Positions 3,527 through 43,686 are shown, counted from the stretch's first letter. The stretch is 64,000 nt of DNA from Nemertoderma westbladi (GCA_032718475.1 JAUCBJ010003414.1:1667-65666); one strand, 5' to 3'. Program-made: numbers and translations. Notes: generated by a model from the sequence alone, not told the origin.

Positions 3527-4165
3527 CCGCTCCATGAAAACAGTAAGTAAGACTGTTTTCACCAATCGAAATATAAACTATTTACAAAATACTTCTAAAT
3601 CTACTGGTGGGGCCTAAAATATAAAATAATCACTACCTAATTATTGCATACTTAATATTGCAGGTACAGCGTAAATACAATCTATCATACATACAAAATA
3701 CAAATTTACCAATTAACTTTAGTGCATAAAATACAAAAAAAGCTTTCGGTTAACAAGATAAGCAAATTAAACAAATCAGAACAAATCAAACAAATAATTT
3801 CAAGTTTTCAATAATCTTTATATATTGCAAATATACATAATAAATTTACCAAATTAAATCAGTCTTATAGAATAAACATAATACGCTAATATCTTTCAAA
3901 TAAGTCTTAAAGTGTCCTCCTGACGAGCTAAAGTTCGTCCTGCTGGTCTGGATATCTTCTCCTGAGCACTAATTGCTAACGGTAGGCTCTCAAGCCTTCC
4001 TTCTCCATCTCACTCCTCCAAAACCAACGTTCAATATAAATACCCAAATATAATATCCAAATATAAATATCCAATATAAATATCCAATATCAACATCCAA
4101 ATAAAATATCCGAATATAATATCCAATTGGTAGGCTCGCAAGCCTTCCTTCTCTATCTCGCTCTC

Positions 4166-5956
4166 CTATTCCTTGGCCGAATGGGCTCGTACACGCCCTC
4201 TATTACGATTGGGTGGTGGTCGGGATCGAACTGGACTCGGACTTCGGTGTCGAGCTGTCGGTGGTTCCAAAACGCTAGGAAAGGGGACGACGGGAGTTTT
4301 GCACATCCATCGTGCGCTCAGTCCTCTAAATCCTCGTCCGATTCCAATTGTTGGCTTAACATCGGATCGAGTCTCCACAACGCTGGGAGGAAGTCGAAAG
4401 GGTGGGACTGTTCCGTCCGCTGACACCTCGCTCTCTGATGTCGTCTGAATTCTAATGGGTTCCGGCAAAGCGTATCCTGTCCCTCAGCATTGTTCTCTAG
4501 CGAGGGAAACCGTGCCCCGAGTCATCCAGAGTTGCGACTTCGATGTTGTCCTCTCGGCGATATTTACTACCTTCTTTATCCCTTGTCCGGCCTTCTGGGC
4601 TCTAAGTATACGAAGTTGCGGATCATCCTGTGGGTGACGCGTCTTTTCGGCTAATGGCGTGGCCTTGAAGCCAGTCTCACGCAAAACGTCCGTCTCGTCT
4701 AAAATACACGAGGTTACGCGTTTGTGATAAAATGCGCTCCTGTATGCCCAAGCTATCGAATGCCAGGCTCCTCGATTCCGCTGTTCGACTCGCAATTTGT
4801 CGAATTCCCTGGCGGTAATCTTGTTCACCACAGTTTGTAAGTTCCAAGTGTTCTTGTTGTCGCGGTGTACCTGTAGAAAGTAGTCCCGCACAACCTTAAA
4901 TCCGCTATACAATGGCAATATATCCAGCACCTCCAAGAGTTCATCATATTGAGGCATAGCTGACACGTATCCTTCCTTCGACATTGTGAGAGGGTTTACG
5001 GCCCAAAATCCCAAGTGTGCTCTCATAGGGAAACGGCGTCGCTGTGTCGATACATGCTCATCTGCTAGATTCTCCCAATGGTCGAATAGCTGTCGAATGA
5101 TTTTAACTGACATGTGCTCATAGGGGATGTCCCTAAGTTGACATTCGGATGCCCTATGACCTTTAATATTACAATATGTGCACTGCGCCACGAAATGCCA
5201 GCAAGTGTAGAAAATGTGCGAACGATGATCCCCGCACCAGTTACATACTAAGTCCGGTAGATATATGTGTTTCGCTCCGCATTTCTTTGTGTGGTGGCCA
5301 GTTGCCCCGCATCTGCCACAAATAGTGTTGGCAGGGTACCAAACTCGCTCATACTCAGTTCGCGTCTTCCTCGGAAGGTTCTCTATCTCTATGAGTTGCC
5401 GCAACGGTTCATCTATTATCGCAAACTCGGTTGGATCCACATCGTCGTGATGGGGGGTAGGCTCGCGAGCCTTCCAGGATCCTTCTGGGCCTTTGAATTC
5501 TGCGTGGCGTTCCCCGTCGTAGGGTACTAACGTTAACATCGATGGTCTGTCGACTAGGGTTCCCGCGTGAGTGAGATAGATGTCCCTGAAAACGCTAAGT
5601 CCCGCTCGCGTGAAAACTTTGCAGTGCACATCGGTGTTGTAAAAGGGTTGGAGAAATGGGCGGAATACATCAGTATGCGTCCTTCCTCCGTCGTAAAAGG
5701 TATGTCCTTCACCGAGACATAACGGATGTCGCTTTAGAGTCCTAGACACTACATCGGCGATGAAACAAACATTTACCGAAGATTCTATCGCCAAATAGTA
5801 TTGCAAGATTATTCGTGGAGGTGAAGTAATCGCCCAGTACACGCAACCTCGCCACTTTAGCTGTGACTCGAACTCGTTTACGCCGGGGGTATCTCCCTCT
5901 CCGTATATGTCCGTGTATTTGCTCCTCTTACTCTCCTTATAATCCCAACTAAACAT
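4166..5956 (-). CDS. Family A accessory protein, C-terminal part: three tandem CCHC-type zinc knuckles and an R/S/P-rich basic tail (490-aa and 100-aa ORFs split by a lesion)
   Basis: CGRCGATGHHTKKC, CNWCGDHRSHIFYTC, CTYCNIKGHRASEC; the two ORFs are one reading frame in copy A2 (42335-43021). Confidence 0.8.
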
Positions 5957-6830
5957 TAGGTATGAGATATAACCCGTTCCATTTTTAGCGTGTTATACTC
6001 CCTAAAATATCCTCGCTCAATAGCCCAAAGCAACAATGGTCTAGTATCCACGTATGGCATAGGCAATCGATCCTCTTCCGTGGGCATTCCTGCGAAATCG
6101 CTAATAAGGTCATCCCGTACACTGGATCCGATCTTGACGATGCTCTTATCAAGCACAAACGTCTCGTACGGCCTTTGGCAACATTCTAGCTTCTATGCTA
6201 CAAGCCAGGTCCATGGATTTAACTATCCGTTTTATCATCGCGTGTCTTTGCGTCGTTCCTTCCGGCATAGGCATCTTTCTGTCGCTCCTCTGTCGGCTGA
6301 AGACATGTAACACGCCATCTGGTGCTCGAATCTGTATGGTCTTCGAAGTGAGGCTTTGCTGATGGCTTCCTCCTTCATTATTGTAAAACATAAAACCATT
6401 CTCCTTCAGATATTGGCTAGTCGCGTCCCAATCGTCGAGTAAATCGTCGGTAGGGTTCCAAATTCTCCCTATTGACTTTTCATCATCGAAACTAATAGGT
6501 TTACCAGTCCAATTGGTCGCAATATCGGTGTCGGTCTCAAACGTTCCGACTCCAATCCATAATCGAATCATTTTCGTTAGATATCCTCGCAAGATACAAG
6601 GTGCGATATCCGTCCCCGCGCGATCCACTTCCTTAAAGTCCGTAATATGTGGAGGCACATTGCGTACGATTTTCTGAACTATCGTTCTATGCAACTCGGC
6701 TGACTCTAACACATTACCAAAGGTAACCGATGGGGGGAAATCCAGGTTCGAAATGATCTCCGGGTGTTCAACTGTAGGAATCTCATAAGTTGTCTCCTCT
6801 CGGGTCGGTATACTAATAGAGCTCGGGTGT
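5956..6830 (-). CDS. Family A accessory region, middle part (187-aa and 66-aa ORFs, probably frameshifted pieces), function unknown
   Basis: Contiguous or overlapping ORFs on the element sense strand; no recognised domain. Confidence 0.55.
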
Positions 6831-6837
6831 CATCTCC

Positions 6838-7653
6838 TTAGGTTCGGTTTGATCTTGGGATATCCAGTAAAATGGTAGGCTCGCGAGCCTTCCGCTGAAC
6901 TCCTCGATCTCGCCTTTCTCGTACGCCTTTTACGCCCTGTAGGCTCAAAGCTTCCCGTTTCTCTTGCGTCGACTTATTAGACTCGTCCACTACCATATTG
7001 TAGACGTCTGGTTCGACTAATTTAGGTTCGTAAATAATGATCTCACCCGCGTTCGGTCCACTCATCTTGAACGAATGGTACGGATTCGTCAAAGGGTATC
7101 CGCCTTCTTGGTAATGCAGACTTTGGTGGTATGAGCATCGCGCTAATATCGGCTCGGGGTTTTCCGAGTTCAATCGCATAGGAATCGCGTTGTCTTGCTC
7201 GCGCATACATGCTCCACATTTGTAAAACAGTTTGTATATGGAGAACGCGTCCTTTGTCTCTGGATCCGCTCCTCGAGCGTGTCTATAAAGATGCATTCCA
7301 TCGAATTCGTCCCTAGCTGCAGGCAAGGGTTCGTTCACCGTCAAATATTGCAGTGTATGATATAATCGGCGTATCTCCGTGTCTGGATCCTCGCAAATGT
7401 CACTGGCATCGCATAACGCATACAACGCATTGAACTCCGCGCGTAATTCCTCCACTCTTTTGTTATAAGCGTCCAATCGCTGTTTTGTAACATTCGGGTC
7501 CGCCTTGGATTTAGCGAGCTTGGCTGTACTCCTAGCCATACTCTCCACTCCAAACATGCTAAAGTTTTTAGCTCCATAACGATTAAACGGCGCCTGGTGC
7601 TCCTGTTCCTGCGTAAATCCCTGACGTAACTCCTTATAAATCTTCTCCGCCAT
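6838..7653 (-). CDS. Family A accessory region, first ORF (271 aa; predicted coiled segment and a CxxC...CxxH cluster)
   Basis: ATG in ACAATGG context after a branch point/polypyrimidine/AG; CGAC...CSYH. Confidence 0.7.
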   Translation of the reverse strand: MAEKIYKELRQGFTQEQEHQAPFNRYGAKNFSMFGVESMARSTAKLAKSKADPNVTKQRLDAYNKRVEELRAEFNALYALCDASDICEDPDTEIRRLYHTLQYLTVNEPLPAARDEFDGMHLYRHARGADPETKDAFSIYKLFYKCGACMREQDNAIPMRLNSENPEPILARCSYHQSLHYQEGGYPLTNPYHSFKMSGPNAGEIIIYEPKLVEPDVYNMVVDESNKSTQEKREALSLQGVKGVRERRDRGVQRKAREPTILLDIPRSNRT

Positions 7654-8388
7654 TGTATACGCGTATATATGGTTACATATCGTTACGTTTCTACTAGATG
7701 AAGCGCAAAATAGAGGTTAGATGTGAGGTGACTTAGAGTTTGTCGGCTTTTGGCTCAACTTTGCTCTAAAACCCCAACCCATTTGCCTAATGACTTCGGG
7801 TTCGCGTGATTTCGCACTGGCTCCTAATCCAACAAATTGTGCCGATAAAAAACGAATTCTGGGTAAACTAGCCGCGAGTCTAAAATACTCACCTTTTAAT
7901 TTCCCAAACTACATTCCCAAATAAATAATGCAGTCGAGAATTAATTCAGTCTAAATAATAGTAGACACGACTACATAGAACAAGGCCGGTTTTCTTTTCC
8001 AAAAAAATTTGTCGGTAGGCTCGCAAGCCTTCCATCCGCTCTTGTCCTCCCCAATTTTAATTTTTATCTAGCTGTATTCTAGAATTCGCATTCACTGGAG
8101 AATCATTTTTCTTAAATTTAAATCCAACTGAATGGATTTGTCTAATAATTTTGAAAATTGTCTCACTTGTGGGTTCCAAGTGGAATTCCATTCCTACTGT
8201 ACACACAATCCCGCTCCTATGTGATACATAAGGGTACTACCCTCCATGTTCACATATAAAGACAATGGAATTCCACCGCTGTCTCTATCTACAGTGAAGA
8301 GGATTACAAATGCACATACAGTAATACAAAATACTAAATTACTAAAATACGGTAAGGCTATGTGGCAGCCATCAAGGGTCCCACATCT

Positions 8389-9308
8389 CTATTTACTAAT
8401 GTTGGGTGGAGATTTGTAGTCTCCTGTCTCGTTTCTAGTCTCCTCAAGGAGTACGAGACGTTGTACAGGCCTATCTACAGTATGTCCGTCGATAGTCCTT
8501 ACAGTAACTGTCCTTACTACACCAGATGTAGGGTGCGTGGTCAAAATGACTCCAGTCAGCCAAAACCGTCGTTTCAGATTGGCTTCAGCCAATAAAACAA
8601 AGTCACCGCGTCTTAGACATCGGGTATTAAGATACCAAGAGGTTCTGGTTGAAATAGAGGGCAAATAATACTTCTGCCATATTTCCCAGAATTTGTTTGC
8701 AAGTAGCTGAGTGATTTTCCAAGCCTTGTTGCCGTATCCGTCGCTATTAATGGGTACCGAAGTGGGCAACAATGTCATCGGCGCCTGCATAAGCAGGTGC
8801 GCTGGTGTCAAAGCAAACTGTGCGTCGTTATTGTCTGGGATCAAAGCGATCGGCGTGTGTTCAAAATCGCTTCGAATTCTATTAACAACGTCGTCAGTTG
8901 GTCGTCTGTCAAAATGTGTTGCGTCGGTATTACTTTAGCCATAGCTGTTTTGATTGAGCCAATCAGCCTTTCCCAAACGCCGCCTCTCCACGGACTGTCT
9001 GGAGTGTTGAAGTTCCAAACAATACGGTAAGGACATAGTTCCTCGGAAATCTGGTCTTGGTCCAACTTTCTTAAAGCTCTGGTTATCTCATTCCATGCAC
9101 CCACAAAGTTTGTCCCTTGGTCACAATAAATGGATTTGACCAATCCACGTCTAGCGATAAATCGCCGTAAGGCTAGGATAAAGGCATTGGTGGTCAAGTC
9201 TGTCACACGCTTTATATGGACAGCTCTGCTGGCCATGCAAGTGAAGATTAATCCCCAACGTTTTACCTGTCCTGTACCCTTCCGCGTTTCGCGATAATGA
9301 GTCCAAAT
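8389..9308 (-). pseudogene. BEL/Pao integrase core and C-terminal domain of A1 (frameshifted)
   Basis: CDQGTNFVGA, PWRGGVWERLI, LTPAHLL, FWEIWQKYYL, GVVRTVTVRT and RPVQRLVLLE motifs. Confidence 0.95.
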
Positions 9309-11480
9309 CCGTCATCTCGGTGAACTGTTTGGCGCTGATCGTTTCTGCTGGTTGCAACGTGGGTTTCCGAAAGGGTGTTTCTCGTGGAGGATTGTCAATG
9401 TATTGGTTCGTCGATCTTTCCTCCCGTTTGTAATCAGCTGCTGCTGTCGCTCCAGTACGGAATATTTCCCTTTCCGTCGAGTCCGAGTTGCTAGATGAGC
9501 TATTTAGCTATGGTTGGCGGGTTCACGTCCGGCGTATTACCTTTTGTTGGGCTCGTTGTGGTCTGGAATCTACGGTTCTCCGTCGTTCGGTAGGCTCGCA
9601 AGCCTTCCACGAAGTCGTAGGTCTCATTAAACATTGTTCGATCCTGTGGGTACTACCTACATCCGTCCTCCTCCGTTGTTCGGTAGGCTCGCAAGCCTTC
9701 CACGAAGTCGTAGGTCACGTCGAACATTGTGTCAAAGGTCTAATAAAGCAGTCGGGTTTCGTAGTCGGTCTATAAATAACTGGGTTCGTACAGCACGTCA
9801 CAGGTTTAACTGCTAACGGCTTACTTAACTGTTTAATTGTCATAAACGCAGGTTCCTCTCTTCCTACAAGTAGACTACGACTTACTGTAGGTGGACTAGT
9901 TACATTACCTGCCAAAATTGGCGATGAAGTTGCCCTAGGTTGCGGTATTTCCATCACAACAAACCTGTTACCTTGAGTCGAGCGCACAGGTGTTATTTCC
10001 TTAGGTTTCGTAACAAAGACCAGGTTTATCAGAGTCGTGGGTTTGAGCATAGGAATCCCTTGTAGAAAACGTTTGCAGTAATCCTCGATGAACTCCTCTC
10101 CTCGATCTATCGCTCCCACACTTCCTTCCTCAATTCGCTTCTGTATCCCGCGATATCGAGCTTCCAAGCGATCCAGGGCAGACAAGTTGTGTCCAGCTCA
10201 CGATCTTATAGATCTATCTCTCGCGTCGAGTTCGAGGTCCGCTTGCGCGTTCGCTGCCTCGCGTGATCTACGATTTAGTTCGAACTGTAGTTGCATCTCC
10301 TTTTCGTGTCGATCTGCTACTTGTTGTTGTGCCGCTAACTCCGCTTCTTGTATAGCTAGTCGAGCGTTAATTTGTCTCACTTCCAACTTGGCGCGTGCGT
10401 CAGATGCCACTTTCTTCCGAGCTAACTCCGCTGCGTTTACTGTCGCAACTCGTCGGCTGCATGCAGCTTCTTGTGCCAAATCTTCCTACAGTCTTCTTAG
10501 TTCCAAGGCTTCGAATTCTGCTTGCGCTTTGAGTTGCGCAATCCTTGCCTCGTCTTCTCTTTGTTGTTTTTCTCCCTCGATGGCGATCTGTGCCATCTGC
10601 CGTTGCGCTTCTCCCTTGATGACTTGTTGTCGGCGTGCAACTTCCTGTTGTTGTCGAGTAATTACAGACGCTGTTCTACTAACGTCGCCAACGTCGCTCC
10701 GCATGCTAACAAATGATCTATCCAGTGGTGGATTTTGGTAGGCTCGCGAGCCTTCTGTAGCAAGAACTTCCGTCGTCCCTCGTGGTTCGACTTCCGGTTC
10801 TTCGATCGGTACGCCGTTTCTATGAAGAAAATTGGTGAGCGTCTCTAACCTCCCGTCCAGGCAGTATAGTTCTTCTTCCTCTTCGGGTTGTAACAACGCG
10901 TCCGAAACTGACTCACCTAGCAGTTGGTCGAACTCCTCCTGTTGAGCCAATCTTATTACTGACTTAAACTGGATAAGGCTTTCCCTCGCACTTACCAACT
11001 TATCTATTATCTTTACCTGAGTAAAGTTGTCGACACGCAACTCTGCAAGTTCGTGTAAACCTTTAAGTTTATCTACGGAGGCATATACCCTACTTTCTAT
11101 CCTTACCTGTAAGGTGTAGAACTCGTATCTCGACATCAGGGCGGTTAACTCGCGTAAAACGCGAAAACCTTCTCTGAGGTTTAGAGTAATCTGGGCCACG
11201 TGTCCTCCTATACTTCAATGACATTTTCTTGGCTTCCCGCCAAGCTTACCATGTCTGGTTCCCGTGACCTGGTCTGCGGGACTGTAGGGAAATCCTCGAT
11301 CCTGCCGTCGCCACGCATTGCGGCTTCCGGTATTTCTCTTCGGGGTACCGGCGACGCACGCGGTGTGACATCGGTGGAATCTCGGGTTCTCCTTCTCGGT
11401 TTGTCTACTGTCGATCTGTCCGGTTCGCACGAGTCATAGTCTGTAGGTGGGTATCGAGTCGAGTATGGTGTGTCACTCAT
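9309..11480 (-). pseudogene. gag N-terminal region of A1 (stops and frameshifts)
   Basis: Starts MSDTPYSTRYPP; Q/E/R-rich coiled coil; homologous to 35110-36920, which leads into BEL gag-pol. Confidence 0.85.
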
Positions 11481-12463
11481 GTCTTATTATATACGTCAAG
11501 TACGGGTAATAAAATATCAAAGTATCGGAATGTCGAAATGTCAAACTTACCTTGGTATATATATAGCATATATATACCCTAACCGGTACAAATAAATCAA
11601 CAAAGTCAGAATGTCGAAATGTCAAAATGTCGAAATGTCCAAATGTCAAACTTACCTTGATATATATATATATATATCATATATATACCCTAACCGGTAC
11701 AAATAAAACTAACAAAGTATATAATAAAATATGTAATAATCTAGCCTACCGGCTAAATTTGTATGAATAAGTGAGATAACGGTATACGTTACCAAAATGT
11801 AGATCAACAAGTACAAATAATAGGCAAAACAGCAACGTCTAACGGGAAATAAGTACCAACAACACTACTAATTAGACAGTGAAACCCACAAATTTTGAGT
11901 ACTACTGTGCTTTTAAGTTTGAACGACACGAGTCGTAAAACTTACGCTCCTTTGATCTTCCAGTCATGCAAATTCCTAAATACAAACCGGACGTGGGTCG
12001 TTCCGTTTTTCGGCGTCGCGGACAAATTTTGTGTCTCCCAAACTTGCGAAAAGCGGTCTAATCCTCGAAGCAGTCCAGAAATGAGTCCTTGAGTCCTGAA
12101 AAGTCGAAGGTCAGAGTTTTACTTCTACTCTACGAAAAATCTTCCTAGGTACCGATACAACTTGGTCTTTAAACCCTATTTACCTTTTTAAGTACTGAAA
12201 AGTAACACCGCACACACACGGCGTAAAACAAATTGCTACTAACTAACTATTAGCTAGTCAAATATTAAATACGAAACTACTAGCTACCCTAAAGCCTACT
12301 GAAGCAGGGGACGTTCTACAAATTACTAATTTTACTAATTTTAAATTGTAAGTATCTCCTACTTTTATAATAGCTAACAATATATTTATATCTCACTTTA
12401 GGTAAGATATATCTACCATTTGCAAATTACAATTTGCAAATTAAACAATAAATATACCTCACT

Positions 12464-14644
12464 TTGAGATCCTCTACGGTAACGGCTATCCTACGGCCTA
12501 CATATCTACTAGTACGAAGCTATAGAGTATCTCTAACCGTAAAGTCCAGTAGTATACCGCTTACCAGATCCTAGTAACGATGTATCTTACCGTAAGATCT
12601 AGTAATGAAACGGGCTCGTACAGTATCTGACAACAAATCCCAGTCCAGGGTATCTAAACAAACAGATACAATACACAAACGACTACTGGCGAGGAGCAGA
12701 GCCTAGTGTCTATTCATGTACGTGAGCGGGTCTAATGCCTACAAACTAGACAAAAGGAAACCTGTCCTCTAACCAGTATGGCAGATGTACAGTTACAGTA
12801 ACAGACCAAACTCACGGGAAAACAATCCCCGCGCAGCGAATCCTAAGTATCGCTGACAGTCCTAAATACCATAACTTGCCGCGGTGTGATTTATATGGTT
12901 TATATACGAGCTAGTGGGTTAACATACCTAGCGTAACAATACTGATCCCCCTGTACGAAATCAGTCTAAAGAGGGTCGTGCCTAATGTAACAATACCGCT
13001 GCTCTGACAAAACAACACTTTAATAACAAAATAAATACTCCTTCTTGCCGTAACTAAATATCAGATCCTAAAATTACAAAATACCAACAGTGAGTTATAT
13101 ATATATTCTGCCTAAAGTAACCTAACGTGCGCTATGTAGTAGAACTCTAAGGGTAAATATGTTTTAGGGCGTGTGTATGTGGGTGTGTTACAATAAAACA
13201 ATTTTGGTGTATATCATTTTACTAGGTTTTAGTGATTTTCTGACCAAAACAATACCGTGCGCTAGCTACGAAAATAAGCTAGTCGCGTTTTGTAGAACTT
13301 TATACTTATAAATGACGTCAAAGCTCTCTCCTTCCTATCCACAACTCAACCGGGCAATTACGGTGTTAGTAACTACACCCGTGATCGGCACAAATACCAG
13401 ATTCTGGTTGTAAGATAAGAAATAGGGGTTAATCGCTACCATATGTTAGCTGATCTGGTATACAAATTTGATTCTAGAACTTTGTTGCCGCAGTGGTTAG
13501 CAGCAATACCTATCAGTACGTGGCAAGGTGCGGTAGGATATTAATAAACCTCCCAAGGCCAAGCGGTGTGCCGGTAGCAGAAATACTCCTTGCCTGATCA
13601 AATAACTAAGGTTCAGACAGGGGGGGGGGGGGGGGGGGGGTACTAATGTATGTTCTACAAAGCGAACCGGTACCAAACGGTCAGTGCTTCGAATCACTAA
13701 ATTATGGAACATATGCTGTCCTTACTCGCGTACTGACGAACGGCAATAGCTCACACCTGTGAGGTATACAGGTTAACCCAGGGATTTGTAGTACTGACGG
13801 GGGGGGGGGGGTTCTGTCAGAATATAATTATTTGATCCTAAATTTTGCGGTGCGCCAGAATGGCGTCACACTTACCCTGATCTATAGGTCTTACGTCGGG
13901 CAAGGGCGTCAAACAAAGTCTTACCTTCCTCTGAAATCGGCGCTGCATGGCAAGGTGGAGTATTTCGAAGGGCGAAGGGGGTGCGCGGTCTAATCCAATG
14001 TGGGCGCTAGCGTGTTGTGGACATCTTTCCCTGCGTTGCTGATGGCCTAACGGTCTAGGCGGCCATCTCCTCAATGCTTGGCTGTCCCAAAGGTGGACGT
14101 TCGAAAATATACATGTTCAGAAGTTTACAGTATATTTACAGTTTAGCAAATGATTTATCAAACAGATTTATAACAAAACAAATACTAAGTGTCTAAATGA
14201 AGTAAGGATTGATATAACAAGAATGGTGATAACCGAAGGCAAACCAGCCCTTTATATACTAAACTGGGATATAGAATCCGCTAGAACCTTCCAGAGTATT
14301 CCATGGCCTCACATTGGAGCAATAAGATGTTCTATGCCCTATGATTGGCCCAACTCATCGTTCCATGTGTTGTACGCACCTCATTGGTTTATCAAATTGT
14401 ACCAAATGAAAATAAATTGCCCCAAAATGCAAATTTCCCGACTGGGATTCGAATTCGTAACCTATCTGTAATGCAACCAACGCCTTAACCATCTGACCAC
14501 TACGCCATGAGATTAACTACGGGTTTTATGTGTACCAATATGAATAGGCATATTACATTACTGTAATTTAATCAAAATTCGTCGGATTTTAGAAAGTTTT
14601 TACGTTAAACTACAAATGCTATCTTATAGTGAAATAATCCATCA
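12464..14644 (-). repeat. 5' LTR of A1 (about 2.18 kb)
   Basis: Homologous to 23929-25549 and 43687-45637; 3' end set by the TSD-defined terminus of A2. Confidence 0.85.
14436..14506 (-). ncRNA. tRNA-like Pol III cassette inside LTR-A (copy 1)
   Basis: GGCGTAGTGGTCAGATGGTTAAGGCG (A box), TTCGAATCCC (B box), then a T-run. Confidence 0.55.
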
Positions 14645-15535: not shown

Positions 15536-16206
15536 TTAATCATTATTGGTTAACTCACTGTTAGGTGGAGTGTAATTTAGGAGCTCATCGTATGCTTCTC
15601 CTAATTGTTTCACAGGGAGAGAACAAGGGTAATATCGAGCATGGGCAATAAAACCTGGGAAGGCTTGTGCAGCGTTGTAAATACGTTTTCCTAAATACAG
15701 ATTCACAGTGCTATCCAATGCTGCTCTATGGGTATTTGGAGTGTCGAACTCCATTCTTCTGTAATCTGCACTACCAACTCTTCGACTGTAAAGGGATGTT
15801 TGTTTATTAGCAGCACTCACACCAACCGCAACGAAATACCATTCATTGGAGGTGATGGCGTTGGGAAATGCTTGAGTGGCTGACGATATTGGATTATAGT
15901 ACAATTGACGAGCATCAGGCCAAATCCATAGATGTGTTCCATAGTTTACAGTGTCGCCAAACTCAAATATTGGGCCACCTCCAGGCGTATTGATAAAGGC
16001 CAACATTGTAAGAGATTCTGAGGTTAACTCATTTGGATCATGTGCGATTGATATGTAGCCGTTAGTGAAATCTATCGCTTGGTTTTCTACACCGCCTGGT
16101 CCAAGTCCATATCTTAATGTTCCAACAATGTCTCCATGGAGATTTGGTAATTTGTTCTGTCCACCGTCAACCAAGTTCAGTGGCCACCATGAATCAAATT
16201 GGCAGT
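15536..16206 (-). CDS. Laminin-G/concanavalin-A-like (pentraxin-like) domain, terminal exon of a host gene
   Basis: tttgcag| phase-1 acceptor; (D)CQFDSWWPLN...AIDFTNGYISI...EWYFVAV...LYLGKR...FPGFIAHARYY pattern; ends in a stop codon. Confidence 0.8.
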
Positions 16207-16869
16207 CTGCAAATAATTAAGGAATACACATATGATTTTTTTCTGAATGATATATTGATAACATTTACTACAACTACTAGGTCGAGCGAGCTCAGACACT
16301 TTCAGTGCTGATAACTTTTACACCAAACTAAGTATGTGTTATTTGCATCGATTTTCGTCTGGAGAGGGAGGAATTTAGATGCTTCGAAAGTCCCCCCCCC
16401 CCCTCCCCTCCACCTATCTTAGTGAAAAAAAGTGAACAAAGTTTCCTATTGGATAATTCATCATTAAATTGCTGTTCCGATTGTATTCCAATTGTAGATG
16501 TGTGCCGCTCTGTAAATGAAACTGAGTAGAGATCAATGAAAACTACAATCTGATATAACGTATTGTACTTAAGTCGATAAAAATCGAAAAGTCGAAAAAA
16601 ATACGACCAACCAGGTTTTTGCTCCATTGACACAGTGGGTGGTCTGCTAACCAAAATCCGCGAAAATCCGCCAATTGAAACTCTAGTTATTGACCCTTGA
16701 CTCTTCGACTATAGAGGAATGTGTGCTTTTATTAGCTACCCCGCGTTAGGCTGTTTTTTTTTATCTATTTCTGCCAGATTATTAATTGGGGGGGGGGGGG
16801 GGGGGGGGGGATTATGCCCGGAATTAAGTTCCATAGTGTGCATGTTTAAATGACACAAAGAACCTTGGC

Positions 16870-19930: not shown

Positions 19931-20375
19931 CCATTACCAATATTGCTGGAGACTCTTTTTTATAAACGCTTGTAGCTAAAGATTGAAAGCAAAAATAAAA
20001 ATTCTGGCTCACCCAGTCAGTGGTCAGGAGGTGAAACTATCTCTGTTTCAAATTTCATGCAATCTCATTAAGATTTGTAGAAAAATTAGTGGGGAGGGTG
20101 GGGGGGGGGGGGGGGGGGGGTGTAATCGGATTCAATTCCGAGCATTACCCACCTAAAACGGGACTAGTGGCATTTTACCAATATAGTTGGGGATGTGAGA
20201 TTACCAATAATAATCTCACCTCATAACCAACTGGGGGGGGGGGGGGGGGGGGATACACGCCGCAAGCCATAGAGGAAGGTGAGAGGTCAAACCACCTCAC
20301 AGGGACAAACAAGCTAGTGAGGCTAGCACCAAGGGGTAACACCAACAAGGAGTGGCGAGGTGAGCATTAATCGGG

Positions 20376-31944: not shown

Positions 31945-33610
31945 TTTATTGTTAATCACAACAAGCCAATTAAGGCTATTGTTGAGAGCAAAGTAGTATC
32001 AACTGCACGCTACAATACCGGAGTACAAATACATTTAGAAAAGAAATACATAGGTGAACCCAGTGCGTAAAGTAGGAACATAATATATATTATATCTACA
32101 TAATAACAACCTAAACCGAAGAACTACCAACACATACTCACACCACAAACATTCAACACACGTAATACGTACTAACTAGGTTTTAGCCTCCAGTCGTAAT
32201 TTAAAGGCGTGATATAAAAACACACCAAACTGCTTAATTTTGGAATCCGACGTCAGACTGAGGAGTTCAAGAAATTTGACCGATGAAGGATTTCTATGAT
32301 ATCTTACTGCCAAAAATTTAATGCGTAGATCATGATAGAGCGGACATTTAAGTACAAAGTGGTATTCATCCTCCACTTCTTGGAGGTTACAGAGCTGGCA
32401 TAATCTATCGTTACGCGGTACATTATGCCAACGTCCGTATTCAATTTGTAGATCGTGTGAGGAACACCTTAGGCGGCTCACAGTCTTACACAGTGTAGGG
32501 TAACCACTAAGTGAGTTTAAGTAGTTTTCTGCCCCAAACACCCTCTTGAAATACCAAATTCCCTTGGGAGAATTTTCTATCGCACTCCACCAAGACTGGA
32601 TGAAGTTATCCTGTAATGTACGTTCTAGAGATTTAATAAACATTTTATTACAGCTGACCGACTGGTTGACCCACGCCCAACTTTTACCAGACTTATTAAG
32701 CAGATCGCGCACACCAGAAACCCAGTTACTGTCATTGAAAGTCAGACAGTCCTGAAGTAGCATAAGATACGCCTGCTTGACTAAACGCGAGTCTGGTAAA
32801 TTAATAATTTTAATCCAATATTTTACTATACGAATTTCCCTAGACAATGCTAGCGGGAATACTCCAGTTTCACCATAACTCATGAAGTTAGGTGTTCCTG
32901 ACTTTACCCCCAATAACCGTTTTAGAAATTTAAGTTGAACTCGTTCGCACTCTGGAGCGCTGTGGAAACCCCAGATTTCACTTCCATATTCCAGGATCGG
33001 TTTCACAAGTGTATTGAAGATATGAACTTTTAAGCTCAGTGAAATGTTTGGGAATTTCGAAAAATATTTTAAGAGTACAAAATATGCTTTAGAGGCCTTC
33101 TCTGCAAGAGAACACTCCGCTTTCCTGAATCCGCCAGAGGGAGAAAATATTACTCCTAGGTAAGTATAGTCAGAGACAATTTTGAGTTCACGATTGTGGA
33201 AAGTCCACCGTTCACGCTGTGCAAGATTCCCACCGTTTTTAAAAATCATAATATTGGACTTGTCCATGTTAACCCGCAAACCCCAATAGTCGGCATAGCA
33301 ACCAAGGATATCGAGTGCACCCTGTAGTCCACTAATACTTTCACTAACCAACACGATATCATCAGCATAAAGTAACAGGAAAAGTTTGAGCGCACCTACA
33401 TCCAGGCCCTGAATTCCTCCATCCCGTAGTTCCGCCTCTAAATCATTAATGAATAGCGCGAACAGAAGGGGACTCAAGCATTCCCCTTGTCGGACTCCTA
33501 CAAGACAATCAAACTGCACAGATACTGAACCCTGAAATCGAACTTGAGACCTCGCCGCACCATACATGTTCTTTATTACTGTAAGAATTTTTCCAGAGAA
33601 TCCGTTAATG
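31945..33610 (-). mobile_element. 5'-truncated non-LTR retrotransposon in the HECT-gene intron (RT plus C-terminal CCHC; clade uncertain)
   Basis: GVRQGECLSPLLF, LLYADD, YTYLG and RLCQLC...EDEYHFVLKCP motifs; ORF 32176-33621. Confidence 0.92.
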
Positions 33611-33627
33611 TGTATATTCACTTTCAG

Positions 33628-33812
33628 GTCTCACCAATAATACATATTTTAAAGCCGGCTTCATGTTGTCATACATCATTCTTCATCGAGGACCATGCCC
33701 CCAGTTCTTTCATGCAATATTATTCCAGCAGCTCTCGGCTGAACCATCTGATGAAGTTCAAGCATCTATTGCTGATGTGACTGATTATGTCGTCCGTTCT
33801 AAACTGCAACGG
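33628..33812 (+). CDS. HECT-like gene, exon 2
   Basis: ctttcag| acceptor, phase matches the 31753 donor; (S)LTNNTYFKAGFMLSYIILHRGPCPQFF resembles G2E3-type HECT. Confidence 0.75.
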
Positions 33813-33958
33813 GTGTGGTATTTACATATTATTTAATTTTTATTTTATCGTGATATATTGTTCCGGTATTTACTTACATTGAATTATGAATCATTTATTT
33901 TAATTAATGGAATAATTAATATGAAAGAAAATATTTAGGGGTATCAATTTAATTTTAG

Positions 33959-34719: not shown

Positions 34720-35109
34720 GTCTATACGCTGGTTGGTACTTATTTCCCGTTAGACGTTGCTGTTTTGCCTATTATTTGTACTTGTTGATCTACATTTTGG
34801 TAACGTATACCGTTATCTCACTTATTCGTACAAATTTAGCCGGTAGGCTAGATTATTACATATTTTATTATATACTTTGTTAGTTTTATTTGTACCGGTT
34901 AGGGTATATATATGATATATATATATATATCAAGGTAAGTTTGACATTTGGACATTTCGACATTTTGACATTTCGACATTCTGACTTTGTTGATTTATTT
35001 GTACCGGTTAGGGTATATATATGCTATATATATACCAAGGTAAGTTTGACATTTCGACATTCCGATACTTTGATATTTTATTACCCGTACTTGACGTATA
35101 TAATAAGAC

Positions 35110-38100
35110 ATGAGTGACACACCATACTCGACTCGATACCCACCTACAGACTATGACTCGTGCGACCCGGACAGATCGACAGTAGACGAACCGAGAAGGA
35201 GAACCCGAGATTCCACCGATGTCACACCGCGTGCGTCGCCGGTACCCCGAACAGAAATACCGGAAGCCGCAATGCGTGGCGACGGCAGGATCGAGGATTT
35301 CCTTACAGTCCCGCAGACCAGGTCACGGGAACCAGACATGGTAAGCTTGGCGGGAAGCCAAGAAAATGTCATTAGAAGTATAGGAGGACACATGGCCCAG
35401 ATTACTCAAAACCTCGGAGAAGGTTTTTGCGTTTTACAAGAGTTAACCGCCCCGATGTCGACATATGAGTTCTACACCTTACACGGTAAGGATAGAAAGT
35501 AGGGTACATGCCTCCGTAGATAAACTTAAAGGTTTACACGAGTTGCGTGGCGACAACTTTACTCAGGTAAAGATAATAGATTAGTTGGTAAGTGCGAGGG
35601 AAAGTTGTTGTTACAACCCGAAGAGGAAGAAGAACTATACTGCCTGGACAGGAGTTTAGAGACGCTCACCAATTTTCTTTGTAGAAACGGCGTACCGATC
35701 GAAGAACCGGAAGTCGAACCGCGAGGGACGACGGAAGTTCTTACTATGGAAGGCTCGCGAGCCTACCAAAATCCACCACTGGATAGATCATTCATTAGCA
35801 TGCGGAGCGACGTTAGTAGAACAGCGTCTGTAATTACTCGACAACAACAGGAAGTTGTACGCCGACAACAAGTCGTCGAGGAAGAAGCGCAACGGCAGAT
35901 GGCACAGATCGCCATCGAGGGAGAGAAACAACAAAGAGAAGACGAGGCAAGGATTGCGCAACTCAAAGCGCAAGCAGAATTCGAAGCCTTGGAACTGAGA
36001 AGACTGGAGGAAGATTTGGCACAAGAAGCTGCAGCCGACGAATTAGCATGAGTTGCGACAGTAAACGCAGCGGAGTTAGCTCGGAAGAAAGTGGCAAGAT
36101 GGAAGTGAGACAAATAAACGCTCGACTAGCTATACAAGAAGCGGAATTAGCGGCACAACAACAAGTAGCAGATCGACGCGAAAGGGAGATGCAACTACAG
36201 TTCGAACTAAATCGTAGATCGCGCGAGGCAGCGAATGCGTAAGCGGACCTCGAACTCGACGCGAGAGATAGATCTATAAGATCGCGAGCTGGACACGACT
36301 TGTCTGCCCTGGATCGCATGGAACCTACAGTAAGTCGTAGTCTACTTGTAGGAAGAGAGGAACCTGCGTTTATGACAATTAAACAGGTAAGTAAGCCGTT
36401 AGCAGTTAAACCTGTGACGTGCTGTGCGAACCCAGTTATTTATAGACTGACTACGAAACCCGACTGCTTTATTCGACCTTTGACACAATGTTCGACGAGA
36501 CCTACGACTTCGTGGAAGGCTTGCGAGCCTACCGAACAACGGAGGAGAACGGATGTGGGCAGTACCAACAGGATCGAACAATGTTTAACGAGACCTACGA
36601 CTTCGTGGAAGGCTTGCGAGCCTGCCGAACGACGGAGAACCGTAGATTCTAGACCTCAACGTACTCGACAAAAGGTAATACGCCGGACGCGAACCCGCCA
36701 ACCACCTTATCCGGACGATAGCGACTCATCTAGCGACTCGGAGTCGACGGAACGGGAAATATTCCGTACTGGAGCGGCAGCAGCGGCAGCAGATTACAAA
36801 CGGGAGGATAGATCGACGAACCAATACATCAACAATCCTCCACAAGAAACACCCTTTCGGAAACCCACGTTGCAACCAACGGAAATGATCAGTGCCAAAC
36901 AGTTCATCGAGATGACGGACCGACTAGCTCAACTCGAAGAACGATTCGAAGCGCAACCGTCGGATCGATCACAAACCAGCGTGGAGATAGAACAACCTAG
37001 ACAACATCGACCACCAAGGAGAGAACAGGAGACTAGACAGACTCTGACCCATCGAGAAGAAGATCCCGTTAATATTTCCTACCGACGAACAATGCGCAGA
37101 ATGGAACGACTGGACGACGCAACCGAACAAGGACGCAGACAGTTAGATTTAGTTAGCGAGATTGCGAAGTTTGCGGCTAGACACGGATTACCGGCATAAC
37201 AACCGCTGAAGTTCTCTGGCAAAGTGAAACACTGGCATACACTGGTAGACTACGTAGAGTCCCAGATTGCTAAGTGTGCATTCACCTCGACGGAGAAGTT
37301 GAATTACTAGCTCCAAGTCCTGTCTGGTGAGCCGAAACGATTAGCGGAAACCTTCATTGGTGTTCCAGATGCCTTTGAGTTGGCGTACGACCATCTATAT
37401 TCGATTTACGGCGGCAACGTCGCCATGGCTAAATCCATTATCGAAGACCTCTGCAGAGGAGGCAGTATTTCGAAACCGATCGATCTTCTATGACTCGCGG
37501 ACGAAATCAAGAATGCTATAGAGACTTTACGGTCCATTGGACAACTCGAATACGCTAACGCACCGACAGTTCTCATTCGAATAATCGGTAGACTTCATCA
37601 TAGACTACGACGAGAATGGCGACGCATCGAGTACCAGCGTGAAGAAGCCGGCGGGCTATTGAAACTCACCGACGTCTACCAACTGATTTCACGGGAGGCC
37701 GTAATAGAGACTCGATCGAACTATACTGATCACCATATAGCGGCAGAAGGGATAGCTATTTCTGCGCCGACTCGGACTAAACCATTTCCGACGAACGCGA
37801 AAGCCGTTACCTATGCCACCCCAACTGAGACTTCTAAAGTTCTGACGCCTATCGGCATCTAGCAGCCACGACAACAGTTGCCGGCGGACTTTGTGGGATG
37901 CTCATACTGCGAGCGGAACGGCAGGAACCATAGCGGACATAAACTACGTGGATGTCGCGCTTTTAGGGAGTTAGGAATCGAAGAAAGAAGACTTCAGATT
38001 CGATCTTTGGATTCTTGTTGGAGATGTACGAAGCCAGGACTCGTCCGGAAGGATTGCCCGAGCGACGATACATGTCCTCTATGTGGACGTAACCACAACG

Positions 38101-38873
38101 CGTTACTTCACACGACTAGTCATACTCCGACCAAATGCTTTCGACGAGAGTATCCAGATAAAGCGGCTAGATGCGATGCGCTTTATAAAGAGCGTGCGCC
38201 GCGCGAGATTCGTACTTTCTATACAGACTGTATGGATCAGTCGGGATCATCGGACGAGGACGAGGAGGAAGACGACACATTTTACGTGCATGCGGGGGAG
38301 GAACAGCCATCAGTAACACTCCTCACACAGAACCAATTGAAAGGGTTTAGCGTGATTCCTATAAAGATTACCGGAACCAGAGGGAGCAAGCGTATATACG
38401 CTATCTTAGACTCTGCGTCATCGCATAGTTATGTCGACGAACAAGTAGCCGATGTGGTTACGGACATGAGTCAAGGTAAGACTGCTCAGTATACTGTAAG
38501 CAGCATGCATGGTAAGCGAGCGATTCCAGTGACAAGAGTAAAACTAACCTTATACACTCTTCTTTCCAAAGCGGAACACAGCAAGGAGGAGCGCTCATTA
38601 CTTCCGGTAAAAAATTTGACCTTTGCAGCTACGAAGGACTTTAGTAACTTGCTCGGCCCTGTGCCAGAGCAATCACCGGAAGATCATAAGTATTTCCGAC
38701 ACCTTGGAATACCGGAATGTCCTGTTAATTATCGTTCAATCACGATGTTAATTGGGACAGACCAGTTTAACTTACATCAGGTATGGGAGACACGCCCATC
38801 TGTTATTACAGCGGGCAACCCCTATGCATGTAGAACTGGTATATATATAATATATATAACTTGGTATACTTAG
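35110..38873 (+). pseudogene. A2 gag and aspartic protease (several stops and frameshifts)
   Basis: BEL-type Cys/His cluster CSYC..H..C, CWRC..C, CPLCGRNHNALLH; protease YAILDSASSHSYV. Confidence 0.93.
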
Positions 38874-39290
38874 AGCACCAGTGCGTTCACTAGAGGTAAG
38901 TGACCAGGAGGACAACGTTTTGAGTACGTGTAGTTTATTGACTACTACGATGGATAATTCTCCTTCACACTCCTGTGGTCCAATTGTACAGACTGCATTA
39001 CGACAGACTTGCGTCGCTAACGCAGACGTAACCGATACTGACGTAACTGATCTAGACACGACCACACGACCTCTGGCTTACAACTACTTGCAGTAAACCA
39101 GGTTGTATTGACTACTGAAGACCAAAGGGTTGTTGCCGTGGATTACTCGATGAACAAGGTTTTTGGAAGGCTTGCGAGCCAGCCTACCGAAAAATCCGAA
39201 GGTCATTGACCCCACCCACCAGCCTTCGACACCGGTCATTGACCGGTTTTCAAACCGCCACACGACGATTCGACGCCGACTAGTGACACC

Positions 39291-40955
39291 AGAAGGCTTG
39301 CGAGCCTACCAGACACATTGAAACTAGCCACTGCAGCGGACGAAGACGTGGACGAGGACCATGGCGCAGTGCAAGCAGCGCTTGACCGACTGCTGACTCA
39401 ACGGACCATTAAATGGTTGGAACAGGACTCAGCAGAACCCGGTAGTTACGAGACCGCTATGTCAGAACAGGAAAAACGGTCATTAAATATTATGAGAGAT
39501 ACCATTCGCCAGACCGCGAATGGCCACTACGAGGTTGGCATATTGTGGTGCAATGGACAAACTAAACTCGTTAACAACTACCCACTTGCTTTGAGGCGAC
39601 TCAAATCAATAAGGCAGCGATTGTTGCGTGATGAGACGGCCCATATGCAATACAATGCGCAACTTCAGACGTATCTCCAAAAGGGATATGCCATTAGGAT
39701 GTTAAATCCCGAGGTAACCACAGATCAGACATATTACCTGCCACATCATTTTGTTCGACACCCGGACAAACCTGGCGAGGTGCGTGTAGTCAACGACTGC
39801 GCTGCGCTTTACCAAGGGATGTCTATGAACAGCGAATTGATGGACGGGCCGAATATGAATAATTACCTCATGGTAGTCCTAATGCATTTTAGACAACGCA
39901 AAGTGGCATTCACCTGTGACATAGAGGCCATGTTTCACCAGGTTAAGGCTTTGGAGCGGGACAGGGACAGCTTGAGGTTTCTTTGGTATCCGGACGGAAA
40001 TTTAGAACTTCCGCCAGAAACTTACCAAATGCAGGTAAGAGTTTTTGGAACCAGGGACAGCCCCAACTGCACCATATACGCCTTAAAGCAGACAGCATTG
40101 GACAGACAAGACCAATTTGACCCAGAAGTAGTTCGGACAGTGGAACGAGATTTCTACGTGGATGACGGCCTCAAGAGTTGTGACACTCTGGAGTGCGCTA
40201 CGACCGTAGCACACCAACTCCAGGATTGTCTTGCTGAGGGCGGATTCCGCCTTATGAAGTTCGCTTCCAACAAACCCGAACTAGTGAACTCATTCGACCC
40301 GATGGATCGCAGTGGAGGTGACTTAGACTTAGACCTAGAACCTCTACCTACGACCAAAGTATTAGGACTTAGTTGGGACCCTAACACCAACAATTTTAGG
40401 GTACATGTAAGGTCCAACGACCAGACTAGACCTCTCACTAAGAGGACTTGCTTATCGACCATGAATTGATTGTATGACCCATTGTGTTTCATTAGTCCAG
40501 TGATCCTACATGCTAGGATCATACTCCGCAGCATTTGGCAAGCCGGACTGGAATGGGACGATCCCATCCCAGAAAAGTTAGCTGAGCAATGGAGGGACTG
40601 GGAAGCCCAACTGACATTCCTACAAGACTATACCATACCAAGGGTATACTTTCCTTTGCAGACCACCTTTCCTGCCGATTTAGAGCTTCACAGATTTAGT
40701 GACGCTAGCAAGGATGGATTGGGGGTTACTTTATACCTTAGACGACAAGTGACATCGGACAGCTACGAAGTGTCTCTCGTTACTTCAAGGGCTAGAACAA
40801 TGCCGTTGAAGTATATGACTCTAGTTCAACGCGAGCTGGAGGCTAACTTGAAGGTCACATATTGGACGGATGCGACGTTGGTACTTTGGTACATAAACGA
40901 CGAATTATCAATTGCGATATTTCGCATGAGAGTTCACAGCGATCAATCAAGGTAA
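39291..40955 (+). pseudogene. A2 reverse transcriptase and RNase H
   Basis: YYLPHH, DIEAMFHQV, FGTRDSP, FYVDD, YDPL, LHRFSDAS and YWTDA motifs of BEL/Pao. Confidence 0.96.
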
Positions 40956-40977
40956 ACAGATCAAGTCTTCACCGATT

Positions 40978-41912
40978 TTGAGTTGGAGTCCGATTATTTA
41001 CAGGGGCTTACTTTGTCACAAGTCCAGACTCCAGAACATTGACTTTGCACTAGACTTTAGGTATCCTATCATCATACCGCAACACCATGAGTTACAGCGC
41101 GCTATGATACTGGACGCACATGTACAACTCAAACACGTGGGTAGACATCACTGCCTATCACACTTACGATCGAGGTTTGTACTGATTGGGCCTAGCAAGG
41201 CACTGAGTTCGGTAACACGGAACTGTATGATTTGTAAGAAGGTGCACGCGAGAATAGGACACCAAGAAATGAGTGAACTACCACTAGTGAGATTACAGGC
41301 GTTTAGACCCCCTTTCACTGAGACAGGGATAGACTGTTTTGGACCTATAATCGCGAAACGTGGAAGGATACAGGTAAAACGTTGGGGATTAATCTTCACC
41401 TGCATGGCCAGCAGAGCTTTCCATATTGAGCGTGTGACAGACTTGACCACCAAAGCCTTTATCCTAGCCTTACGGCGATTTATCGCTAGACGTGGATTGG
41501 TCAAATCCATTTATTGTGACCAAGGGACAAACTTTGTGGGTGCACGGAATGAGATAACCAGAGCTTTAAGAAAGTTGGACCAAGACCAGATTTCCGAGGA
41601 ACTACATCCTCACCATATTGTTTGGAACTTCAACACTCCAGACAGTCCGTGGAGAGGCGGCATTTGGGAAAGGCTGATTGGCTCAATCAAAACAGCTATG
41701 GCTAAAGTATTACCGACGCAACACATTTTGACAGACGACCAACTGACGACGTTGTTAATAGAAATTGAAGCGATTTTGAACACACGACCGATCGCTTTGA
41801 TCCCAAACAATAACGACGCACAGTTTGCCTTGACACCAGCGTACCTGCTTATGCAGGCGCCGATGAAATTGTTGCCCACTTCGGTACCTGTTGATAGCGA
41901 TGGATACGGAAA
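40978..41912 (+). pseudogene. A2 integrase (HHCC and DDE core), C-terminus deleted
   Basis: HVQLKH..CMIC, GIDCFGP, CDQGTNF and GGIWERLI motifs. Confidence 0.96.
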
Positions 41913-43021
41913 CACATATCTCTACCGGACTTAGTATGCAACTGGTGCGGGGATCAACGTTCGCACACTTTCTACACTTGTTGGCGTTTCGTGGCGCAGT
42001 GCACGTATTGGAATATTTAAGGTCATAGGGCATCCGAATGTCAACTTAGGGACATCCCCTATGAGCACATGTCAGTTAAAATCATTCGACAGCTATTCGA
42101 CCATTGGGAGAATCTAGCAGACGAGCATGTATCGACACAGTGACGCCGTTTCCCTATGAGAGCACACTTGGGATTTTGGGCCGTAAACCCTCTCATAATG
42201 TCGAAGGAAGGATACGTGTCAGCTATGCCTCAATATGATGAACTCTTGGAGGTGCTGGATATATTGCCATTGGATAGCGGATTTAAGGTTGTACGGGACT
42301 ACTTTCTACAGGTACACCCCGACAACAAGAACACTTGGAACTTTCAAACTATGGTGAACAAGATTACCGCCAGGGAATTCGACAAATTGCGAGTCGAACA
42401 GCGGAATGCCTGGCAGGAGCCTGGCATTCGACAGCTTGGGCATACCGGAGCGCATTTTATCGCAAACGCGTAACCTCGTGTATTTTAGACGAGACGGACG
42501 TTTTGCGTGAGACTGGCTTGAAGGCCACGCTGTTAGCCGAAAAGACGCGTCACCCACAGGATGATCTGCAACTTCGTATACTTAGAGCCCAGAAGGCCGG
42601 ACAAGAGATAAAGAAGGTAGTAAATGTCGCCGAGAGGACAACATCGAAGTCGCAAATCCGGATGACTCGGGGCACGATTTCCCTAGCTAGAGAACCACGC
42701 GGAGGGACAGGATACGCTTTGCCGGAACCCATTAGAATTCAGACGACGTCAGAGAGCGAGGTGTCAGCGGACGGAACAGTCCCACCCTTTCGACTTCCTC
42801 CCAGCGTTGTGGAGACTCGATCCGATGTTAAGCCAACAATTGGAATCGGACGAGGATTTAGAGGACTGAGCGCACGACGGATGTGCGAAACTCCCGTCGT
42901 CCCCTTTCCTAGCGTTTTGGAACCACCGACAGCTCGACACCGAAGTCCGAGTCCAGTTCGATCCCGACCACCACCCAATCATATTAGAGGGCGTGGACGA
43001 GCCCATTCGGCCAAGGAATAG
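41913..43021 (+). pseudogene. A2 remnant of the accessory zinc-knuckle gene
   Basis: Homologous to 5273-4166 of A1; joined to integrase by a deletion with AACA microhomology. Confidence 0.88.
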
Positions 43022-43686
43022 GAGAGCGAGATGAAGAAAGGAAGGCTTGCGAGCCTACCGATTGGATATTATATTCGGATATTTTATTTGGATGTTTATA
43101 TTGGATATTTATATTGGATATTTATATTTGGATATTATATTTGGGTATTTATATTGGATGTTGGGTTTAGAGGAGCGAGATAGAGAAGGAAGGCTTGCGA
43201 GCCTACCGTTAGCAATTAGTGCTCAGGAGAAGATATCCAGACCAGCAGGACGAACTATTGAGCTCGTCAGGAGGACACGTTAAGACCTATTTGAAAGTTA
43301 TTAGCGCATTATGTTTATTATATATTTAAGACTGATTTAATTTGGTAAATTTATTATGTATATTTGTAATATATGAAAGATTATTGAAAGCTTTGTAATT
43401 ATTTTTTTGATTTGTTCCGATTTGTATTGTTCTGATTTTGTTTAATTTGCCTATCTTGATAACCGAAAGCTTTTTTTTGTATTTTATGCACTAAAGTTAA
43501 TTGGTAAATTTGTATTTTGTATGTATGATGGATTGTATTTACGCCGTACCTGCAATATTAAGTATGCAATAATTAGGTAGTGATTATTTTATATTTTAGG
43601 CCCCACCAGTAGATTTGGAAGTATTTTGTAAATAGTTTATATGTCGATTGGTGACAACAGTCTTACTTACTGTTTTCATGGAGCGG

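Follow-up and report, generated by a model that had tools for sequence, protein, structure and literature searches.

The window analysed here, a stretch of 64,000 nucleotides (nt) of Nemertoderma westbladi DNA (GCA_032718475.1 JAUCBJ010003414.1:1667-65666), contains three incomplete copies of an element designated family A, which judging by its domains and relatives is a BEL/Pao long terminal repeat (LTR) retrotransposon (Belpaoviridae). Along its genes and untranslated parts, family A repeats a 20-nt near-palindrome that appears to be a real, unexplained cis-element and is probably under selection. The three copies are:

3473-14644, minus strand: copy 1, with 5' LTR (TG at 14644), leader, 5' gag, a deletion to the integrase end, accessory region, 3' untranslated region (UTR) and the first ~50 nt of the 3' LTR
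34732-45637, plus strand: copy 2, with leader, gag, protease (PR), reverse transcriptase (RT), RNase H, integrase, a deletion into the accessory knuckles, 3' UTR and 3' LTR (from 43687, cut at 45637)
23929-26809, plus strand: copy 3, with LTR, leader and gag start only; motif absent

Pfam recognises Peptidase_A17 (E 1.6e-32), DUF5641 (E 7.5e-20) and Integrase_H2C2 (E 7.4e-6) in family A, and the relatives of its RT are Peptidase_A17 polyproteins with 34-47% identity, the named ones coming from marine invertebrates and fish. The open reading frames (ORFs) of copy 2 follow the order gag-PR-RT-RNase H-integrase, the protease being recognised by eye only. LTRs start with TG at 14644, 23929, 43687 and 3526, whereas the LTR 3' end and the primer-binding site of family A were not located. 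The LTR measures at least 2.1 kb and contains poly-C tracts and copy-specific internal deletions (12469-14644, minus; 43687-45637, plus; 23929-25544, plus), and the leader contains a duplicated unit at 11512-11718. Copies 1 and 2 are both broken by stops, frameshifts and deletions; placed on a joint scale they give a distance of ~15.5 kb from LTR start to LTR start, which is a lower bound. Because thousands of contigs from public DNA runs (17,066 in run X1) cover copy 1, accessory region included, family A must be present in many copies and the accessory region must belong to it. The element interior is CpG-rich (observed/expected ratio 1.1-1.3 vs 0.8-0.9 elsewhere).

Distribution of the 20-nt motif

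When up to three mismatches were allowed, 27 matches were obtained in the window, namely 15 sites and 12 reverse-strand echoes of the palindrome. All 15 copies listed in a preliminary description of this DNA were recovered where it had placed them and on the strands it had given, with 0-2 mismatches each:

3981-4000, minus strand: 3' UTR site 2 (copy 1), one loop mismatch (window search)
4129-4148, minus strand: 3' UTR site 1 (copy 1), T form (window search)
5456-5475, minus strand: in accessory ORF piece C, C form, KAREPT, just 5' of the CCHC knuckles
6874-6893, minus strand: near the end of accessory ORF piece A, C form, KAREPT
8014-8033, minus strand: in the non-coding spacer after integrase, T form
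9589-9608, minus strand: gag site 3, 93-nt duplication, T form
9682-9701, minus strand: gag site 2, T form
10737-10756, minus strand: gag site 1, C form, EGSRAY, one mismatch
35748-35767, plus strand: gag site 1 (copy 2)
36514-36533, plus strand: gag site 2 (copy 2)
36607-36626, plus strand: gag site 3 (copy 2), one mismatch
39165-39188, plus strand: PR-RT linker site 1, with a small duplication found mainly in the window copy
39242-39245, plus strand: position of linker site 2, a further motif in other family copies that is absent from copy 2 and would give a 78+78-nt spacing
39291-39310, plus strand: PR-RT linker site 3, RRLASLP in the RT frame
43040-43059, plus strand: 3' UTR site 1 (copy 2)
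43188-43207, plus strand: 3' UTR site 2 (copy 2)

A further, degenerate copy reported near 6939 does not hold up, as this locus has only the 8-nt 3' half of the motif (GAGCCTAC) and no match within seven ungapped mismatches. The window copies thus hold 10 distinct sites, separated on the joint coordinate scale by 1055, 93, 2546, 126, 3321, 1140, 1418, 1327 and 148 nt, and the linker site of other family copies brings the number to 11, spread over ~11 kb in seven groups with unrelated flanks. The first site lies ~720 nt into gag; the LTR, the leader and the RT-RNase H-integrase core have none. Across the sites 19 of the 20 bases are invariant, and the single variant fixed among them is at position 9, which is C or T and faces a G that never changes (the C and T forms listed above). 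The 20-bp two-fold site is sharply edged and keeps the same asymmetry throughout.

Family specificity and sense orientation relative to the BEL/Pao element, both asserted in the preliminary description, were confirmed for the window. The 39,043 bases outside family A contain no copy (35 would be expected at the in-element density), the nearest match there has six mismatches in a search allowing up to seven, and 100 dinucleotide-shuffled windows gave no match at all. The second BEL family of the window lacks the motif. In either element copy no other dispersed word of at least 10 bases occurs more than four times. A genome-wide micro-transposon is rejected by the empty surroundings, and an assembly or primer artefact by orthologous sites in two element copies and in contigs of three runs from two samples. 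Pattern scans found no motif in viral contigs and two single matches each in metagenomes (bacterial-looking contigs) and prokaryote genomes, which were taken as chance. Rfam covariance models gave no match at the motif at E values up to 1 over the whole window, and only two chance-level matches (E 5.4 and 8) within 42980-43260; a histone 3' stem-loop is rejected on these grounds.

The reading frames, too, are as originally described. Where seven sites were checked, the motif is read as EGSRAY at gag site 1, as KACEPT or KAREPT at gag sites 2 and 3 and both accessory sites, and as RRLASLP in the linker, and it is untranslated in the post-integrase spacer and the 3' UTR. Eight of the 11 sites lie in a coding frame, the linker being counted by frame. 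Use of three frames rejects a protein repeat and supports conservation at the nucleic-acid level. The motif does not seem to be common to BEL relatives at the distance sampled, because a motif-derived peptide occurs exactly in none of the 121 proteins compared, of which 120 are distant BEL polyproteins; one fuzzy match was seen.

Duplication of longer units and retention of the motif

Local duplication of longer units is evident in three of the seven groups. The gag pair, 93 nt apart, has ~29 nt upstream and 10 nt downstream in common, and the UTR pair ~15 nt upstream. The third case, the linker, is an old 78-nt tandem triplication, in which the motifs are spaced 78 + 78 nt by length count. 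At 39240-39255 the contig depth drops about tenfold, and contigs of runs X1, X2 and X3 have a 36-letter piece there that includes the further motif; the fourth run compared, X4, has no contig over 39120-39340. Unit number varies among family copies, the two departures from the motif in the linker sites of the window are not common to most of the other copies, and the linker site is also covered by contigs that are only 80-85% alike. Two diverged tails of the linker units can be aligned:

39201-39286, plus strand: tails of two 78-nt linker units (39201-39242 vs 39245-39286), 25 of 42 positions identical, ungapped

This match is the best when set against 15,717 other windows, of which the next best reaches 22. 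The linker motifs themselves are alike at 19 of 20 positions, the small duplication being set aside, as compared with 25 of 42 (60%) in the flanks (Fisher p 0.006, an approximate value; the sites share a frame). Erosion of the linker flanks around a motif that is kept is the best sign of selection in these sequences. When 45 site pairs were compared, flank likeness reached at least 18 of 40 only for gag sites 2 and 3 and one borderline pair, all others being at background. The seven groups thus range by degrees from long shared flanks to unrelated ones, which suggests duplication followed by selection on the 20 bases. The earlier picture of ten sites, with two locally duplicated pairs and otherwise unrelated flanks, therefore stands for the number in the window and needs amendment in that the linker sites belong to an old array, an 11th site exists elsewhere and the sites fall into seven groups.

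Predicted folding and the accessory gene

The stable YNMG hairpin proposed in the preliminary description survives in part. Folded by itself, the 20-mer has this hairpin as its predicted structure of least energy (-7.6 kcal/mol, equal on both strands; about -4 to -5 kcal/mol as DNA), and the tetraloops, UGCG and CGCG, fit the YNMG class, but they are closed by a U-A pair and lack the C-G pair that gives extra stability. Of 14 sense sites folded in 200-nt contexts, 10 give the inner stem a probability of at least 0.6 and the four of the gag pairs do not; for the gag, linker and UTR pairs the lowest-energy fold joins one motif to the other. Cofolding predicts duplexes of -30.7, -32.8 and -34.9 kcal/mol for the natural forms vs -15.2 kcal/mol for two hairpins. 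The antisense T-form duplex falls to -22.9 kcal/mol; the T form pairs well on the sense strand only, through G-U. As the C/T variant at position 9 faces an invariant G, all sites would stay mutually pairable in sense RNA, a pattern that is suggestive, and no more than that, of sense-RNA pairing. Stem covariation is absent among the sites, as the stem never varies. Sites that are identical and do not covary are better explained by mutual pairing or by recognition of the bases themselves than by independent hairpins. The spacer between the UTR motifs (43060-43187, plus; 4001-4128, minus) consists of short GGATAT-type repeats, is predicted to fold into a single long rod closed by the motif-motif duplex, and may vary in unit number among copies, as contig joints suggest.

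Downstream of pol, family A carries an additional gene, listed here with matches to splice-site consensus sequences:

4166-7653, minus strand: accessory gene region, ~3.5 kb, in pieces in copy 1; orphan
7694-7720, minus strand: branch point, pyrimidine tract and AG that together predict a 3' splice site, 41 nt 5' of the accessory ATG at 7653; consensus match only
11545-11658, minus strand: two leader sequences, AAG/GTAAGT at 11655 and at 11550, predicted as 5' splice sites ahead of the gag ATG (11480); consensus match only

The region comprises orphan piece A, pieces B and C with DEDDy-like motifs as judged by eye, three CCHC knuckles, whose segment at 5000-5350 (minus strand) is unbroken, and an Arg/Ser/Pro-rich tail. 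A CCHC accessory protein had been named in the preliminary description, and the searches support one encoded by an orphan gene: none of 417 candidates of 160-511 amino acids is homologous to piece A, and piece C contains three CCHC-like knuckles (Pfam E 0.005, below the cut-off). Piece C has one distant match, P0001 (E 1.6e-4, 33% over 102 amino acids), with which it shares the knuckles, and no usable match in the Atlas. The accessory proteins have no match among solved structures and no NCBIfam assignment, the fold search was empty, and AlphaFold models (pLDDT 37 and 34.5) were unusable. A cluster mate of P0001, the 1027-amino-acid JGI/IMG protein P0122, ends in an Arg/Ser/Pro-rich tail as the window protein does. 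P0122 has no Pfam match and matches only within its own cluster; in the Atlas its residues 40-310 lie, with a score of 0.90, near clusters of DNA_pol_A_exo1, a family assigned to 11% and 29% of their members. An exonuclease-like domain is probable in P0122, along with the triple knuckle and the Arg/Ser tail, and the protein may represent a larger group of retroelement accessory proteins that has yet to be described. No related loci were found in viral contigs searched for P0122 or the family A integrase.

In the accessory gene itself a DEDDy-exonuclease-like domain is only a lead: stretches resembling ExoI-ExoIII occur in order in pieces B and C, as judged by eye, and a pairwise comparison of the window protein with the N-terminal domain of P0122 was null (z 0.1). 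The lead, though unproven, is relevant because DEDDy ORF3s occur in rotifer LTR elements and because the exonuclease-homology domain of Egalitarian is described as touching stem-loop RNA without its catalytic residues (PMC13186709). The consensus donors and the acceptor, which is one of two such in copy 1, make a spliced accessory mRNA likely. Its predicted intron would hold seven of the 11 motif sites and the accessory exon the other four.

The remainder of the window contains the following features:

48853-52184, plus strand: gag region (DUF1759) of the second BEL/Pao family, motif absent
48500-48690: leader of the second BEL/Pao family, four repeats with an ACCGGT core that resemble the duplicated leader unit of family A (11512-11718)
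17728-18416 and 19447-19944: a 16/32-bp satellite-like repeat forms two oppositely oriented arrays, which flank an ORF fragment with DUF6451
28221-30548, plus strand, and 32176-33630, minus strand: two non-LTR-type reverse transcriptase ORFs (RVT_1)
15536-16216, minus strand: laminin-G-like ORF
61301-61908: tandem array of 50-bp units, >99% identical

A possible RNA signal or DNA operator

We favour the view that the 20-mer is a multivalent RNA signal for dimerisation or pairing, compaction, packaging or export of the >15-kb genomic RNA, and put its chance of being correct at about even. The sites are sense-oriented and internal and occur in three frames and in non-coding DNA; in three of the seven groups the copies arose through duplication of longer units, and selection would then have kept exactly 20 bases while the flanks eroded. 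Each copy could form a weak hairpin or zip with another into a 20-bp duplex, either inside one RNA or between two packaged genomes. Because the copies would pair mutually, the same sequence, and not mere shape, would be needed at all sites. Zinc-knuckle proteins of the element would read or chaperone these handles, and through them the Gag nucleocapsid domain and/or the spliced accessory protein might bring about dimerisation, compaction, packaging or export of the genomic RNA. A more specific and rather doubtful version has the eleven self-pairing 20-mers act as a private RNA zip-code, which would knit the genomic RNA into a dimer or condensate and be read by a spliced accessory protein, with exonuclease-like fold, three knuckles and Arg/Ser tail, that exports or shields the RNA.

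Retroviral dimer-initiation sites are likewise self-complementary sequences in genomic RNA. The Ty1 palindromes PAL1 and PAL2, reported to drive dimerisation (PMC6844567), offer a parallel within LTR elements, since the family A motif is also predicted to form an intermolecular duplex; as described there, however, Ty1 has one or two palindromes in its 5' UTR, whereas family A has 11 sites over ~11 kb and an empty leader. The packaging signals of MS2, hepatitis B virus and picornaviruses are similar in that many stem-loops with a shared recognition feature are dispersed over the genome, but the account in PMC6281560 is of a small recognition motif and varied affinity, in contrast to 19 of 20 invariant bases here. 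An orphan, cysteine-rich accessory protein encoded downstream of pol and translated from a spliced mRNA (predicted in family A) recalls CERV of Cer1, which exports genomic RNA (PMC10309623), and Rev of human immunodeficiency virus (HIV). Cer1 is a Ty3/gypsy element, and the passages of PMC10309623 considered here define no RNA target element of CERV; the HIV Rev response element, unlike the sites in family A, is one structured region confined to intron-retaining RNA. The rotifer elements Juno and Vesta share with family A an extra ORF after pol with a possible DEDDy exonuclease fold, which in family A is only a lead; they represent other LTR lineages, and the main text of PMC5408684 mentions neither 'hairpin' nor 'CCHC'. 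High-copy symmetric motifs and LTR palindromes, some upstream of an extra ORF, are known from Sireviruses (PMC2829016, PMC4728375). These plant Copia elements, as portrayed in the two papers, carry fast-evolving motifs clustered in LTRs and non-coding DNA, whereas the motif described here avoids the LTR and is invariant inside genes.

Several observations weigh against an RNA signal or weaken the case for selection. Dimerisation and packaging signals of retroelements usually lie in the 5' leader, and that of family A has no site. An identical RNA duplex would result from a palindromic DNA site of any kind, the T/C variant could have arisen only once, and in the predictions the antisense stem forms no less often than the sense stem (mean 0.72 vs 0.59). 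Copies 1 and 2 differ at 3 of 100 positions in motifs and at 111 of 2565 outside (p 0.8), a comparison that neither supports nor refutes selection, because mutations gathered after insertion should not depend on function. Five family polymorphisms of at least 2% within 39120-39340, counted after differences private to the window copy had been excluded, all fall outside the motifs, which is uninformative given an expectation of about one within them. Some changes inside the motif do occur in low-depth contigs, and the three linker sites share one frame, so that protein constraint is possible there. The signal for unspliced RNA proposed in the preliminary description gains from the sign of selection in the eroded flanks, but a mark of unspliced RNA alone fits poorly, because four of the 11 sites would stay in the predicted spliced accessory mRNA. 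Rex/Rem-type response elements are also present in all transcripts.

Among the alternatives a double-stranded DNA operator survives best, although we regard it as unlikely. Here a dimeric element protein, for example orphan piece A, would bind the 20-bp inverted repeat and keep the element unsilenced or transcribed in the manner of VANC, which binds its DNA motif and removes methylation. The strict two-fold site with its sharp edges is operator-like, and the CpG-rich interior would suit such a role; no site lies in the LTR or leader, however, where promoters are located, and the same asymmetry recurs everywhere, the sole variant being one that pairs on sense RNA. CCHC knuckles and an Arg/Ser-rich tail suggest RNA binding, and no VANC (DUF1985/DUF287) or DNA-binding domain appears in the Pfam/NCBIfam results. 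The motifs bound by VANC in Arabidopsis VANDAL elements (PMC5735166) are the closest match in distribution, being short, family-specific, present in many copies of changing number, spread by tandem duplication and associated with an accessory gene. They are also in one orientation, and sense-only placement therefore cannot separate RNA from DNA. According to the same account, VANDAL is a DNA transposon with 8-9-bp, non-palindromic, mainly non-coding motifs for which binding is demonstrated; by contrast, the family A motif is a 20-nt near-palindrome with eight of 11 sites in coding sequence.

Recruitment of a host factor by multiple copies is improbable. A host RNA-binding protein for export, localisation or stability, or a transcription factor, could account for the same distribution, leaving the accessory gene unrelated, and simple retroviruses are reported to recruit NXF1 directly through an RNA element (PMC10309623). 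Host sequence and other elements should then hold the motif, yet the 39 kb outside family A, second BEL family included, have none, and Rfam has no match. Still less probable is a functionless by-product, in which the palindrome stalls reverse transcriptase or promotes template switches and is thereby copied or converted between sites. Template switching preserves orientation, three groups plainly stem from local duplication, unit number varies, and copy-to-copy conservation is not above that of the flanks. Against this, the flanks of duplicated units are down to 60% or background with the 20 bases retained, the large deletions of copies 1 and 2 do not end at motifs, and the sites are missing from the enzyme core and leave reading frames intact. 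Least probable of all are internal plus-strand priming or pause sites for a very long genome, comparable to central or multiple polypurine tracts (several copies of which are described for Sireviruses; PMC2829016), for although the sites are sense-only, internal and spaced 1-3 kb apart and those in the UTR follow purine-rich runs, purines make up only 11 of 20 bases, the other sites lack a purine run, the motif does not resemble the tract that precedes the 3' LTR, and the DNA hairpin is weak.

Each ingredient of an RNA signal or an operator has a precedent in Ty1 palindromes, viral packaging signals, CERV, VANC or Sirevirus repeats, whereas the combined layout was not found described for BEL/Pao. 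The literature searched (supplements and repeat databases lay outside its scope) contained neither an invariant 20-nt palindrome dispersed through LTR-retrotransposon genes nor the T-form 20-mer sequence, and nothing on RNA selection, dimerisation or export in BEL/Pao elements. For LTR retrotransposons in general these processes are known from a few yeast and worm elements. Whether RNA signal or DNA operator, the motif would be a cis-signal that overrides coding sequence in three frames. If it is an operator, it would be an animal, retrotransposon parallel of plant VANC anti-silencing; if it is an RNA zip-code with a dedicated accessory reader, family A would possess an RNA counterpart of the VANC system. 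As the candidate signal is one synthesisable 20-mer repeated 11 times and its candidate reader is encoded in the same element, the question can be tested with oligonucleotides and reporters.

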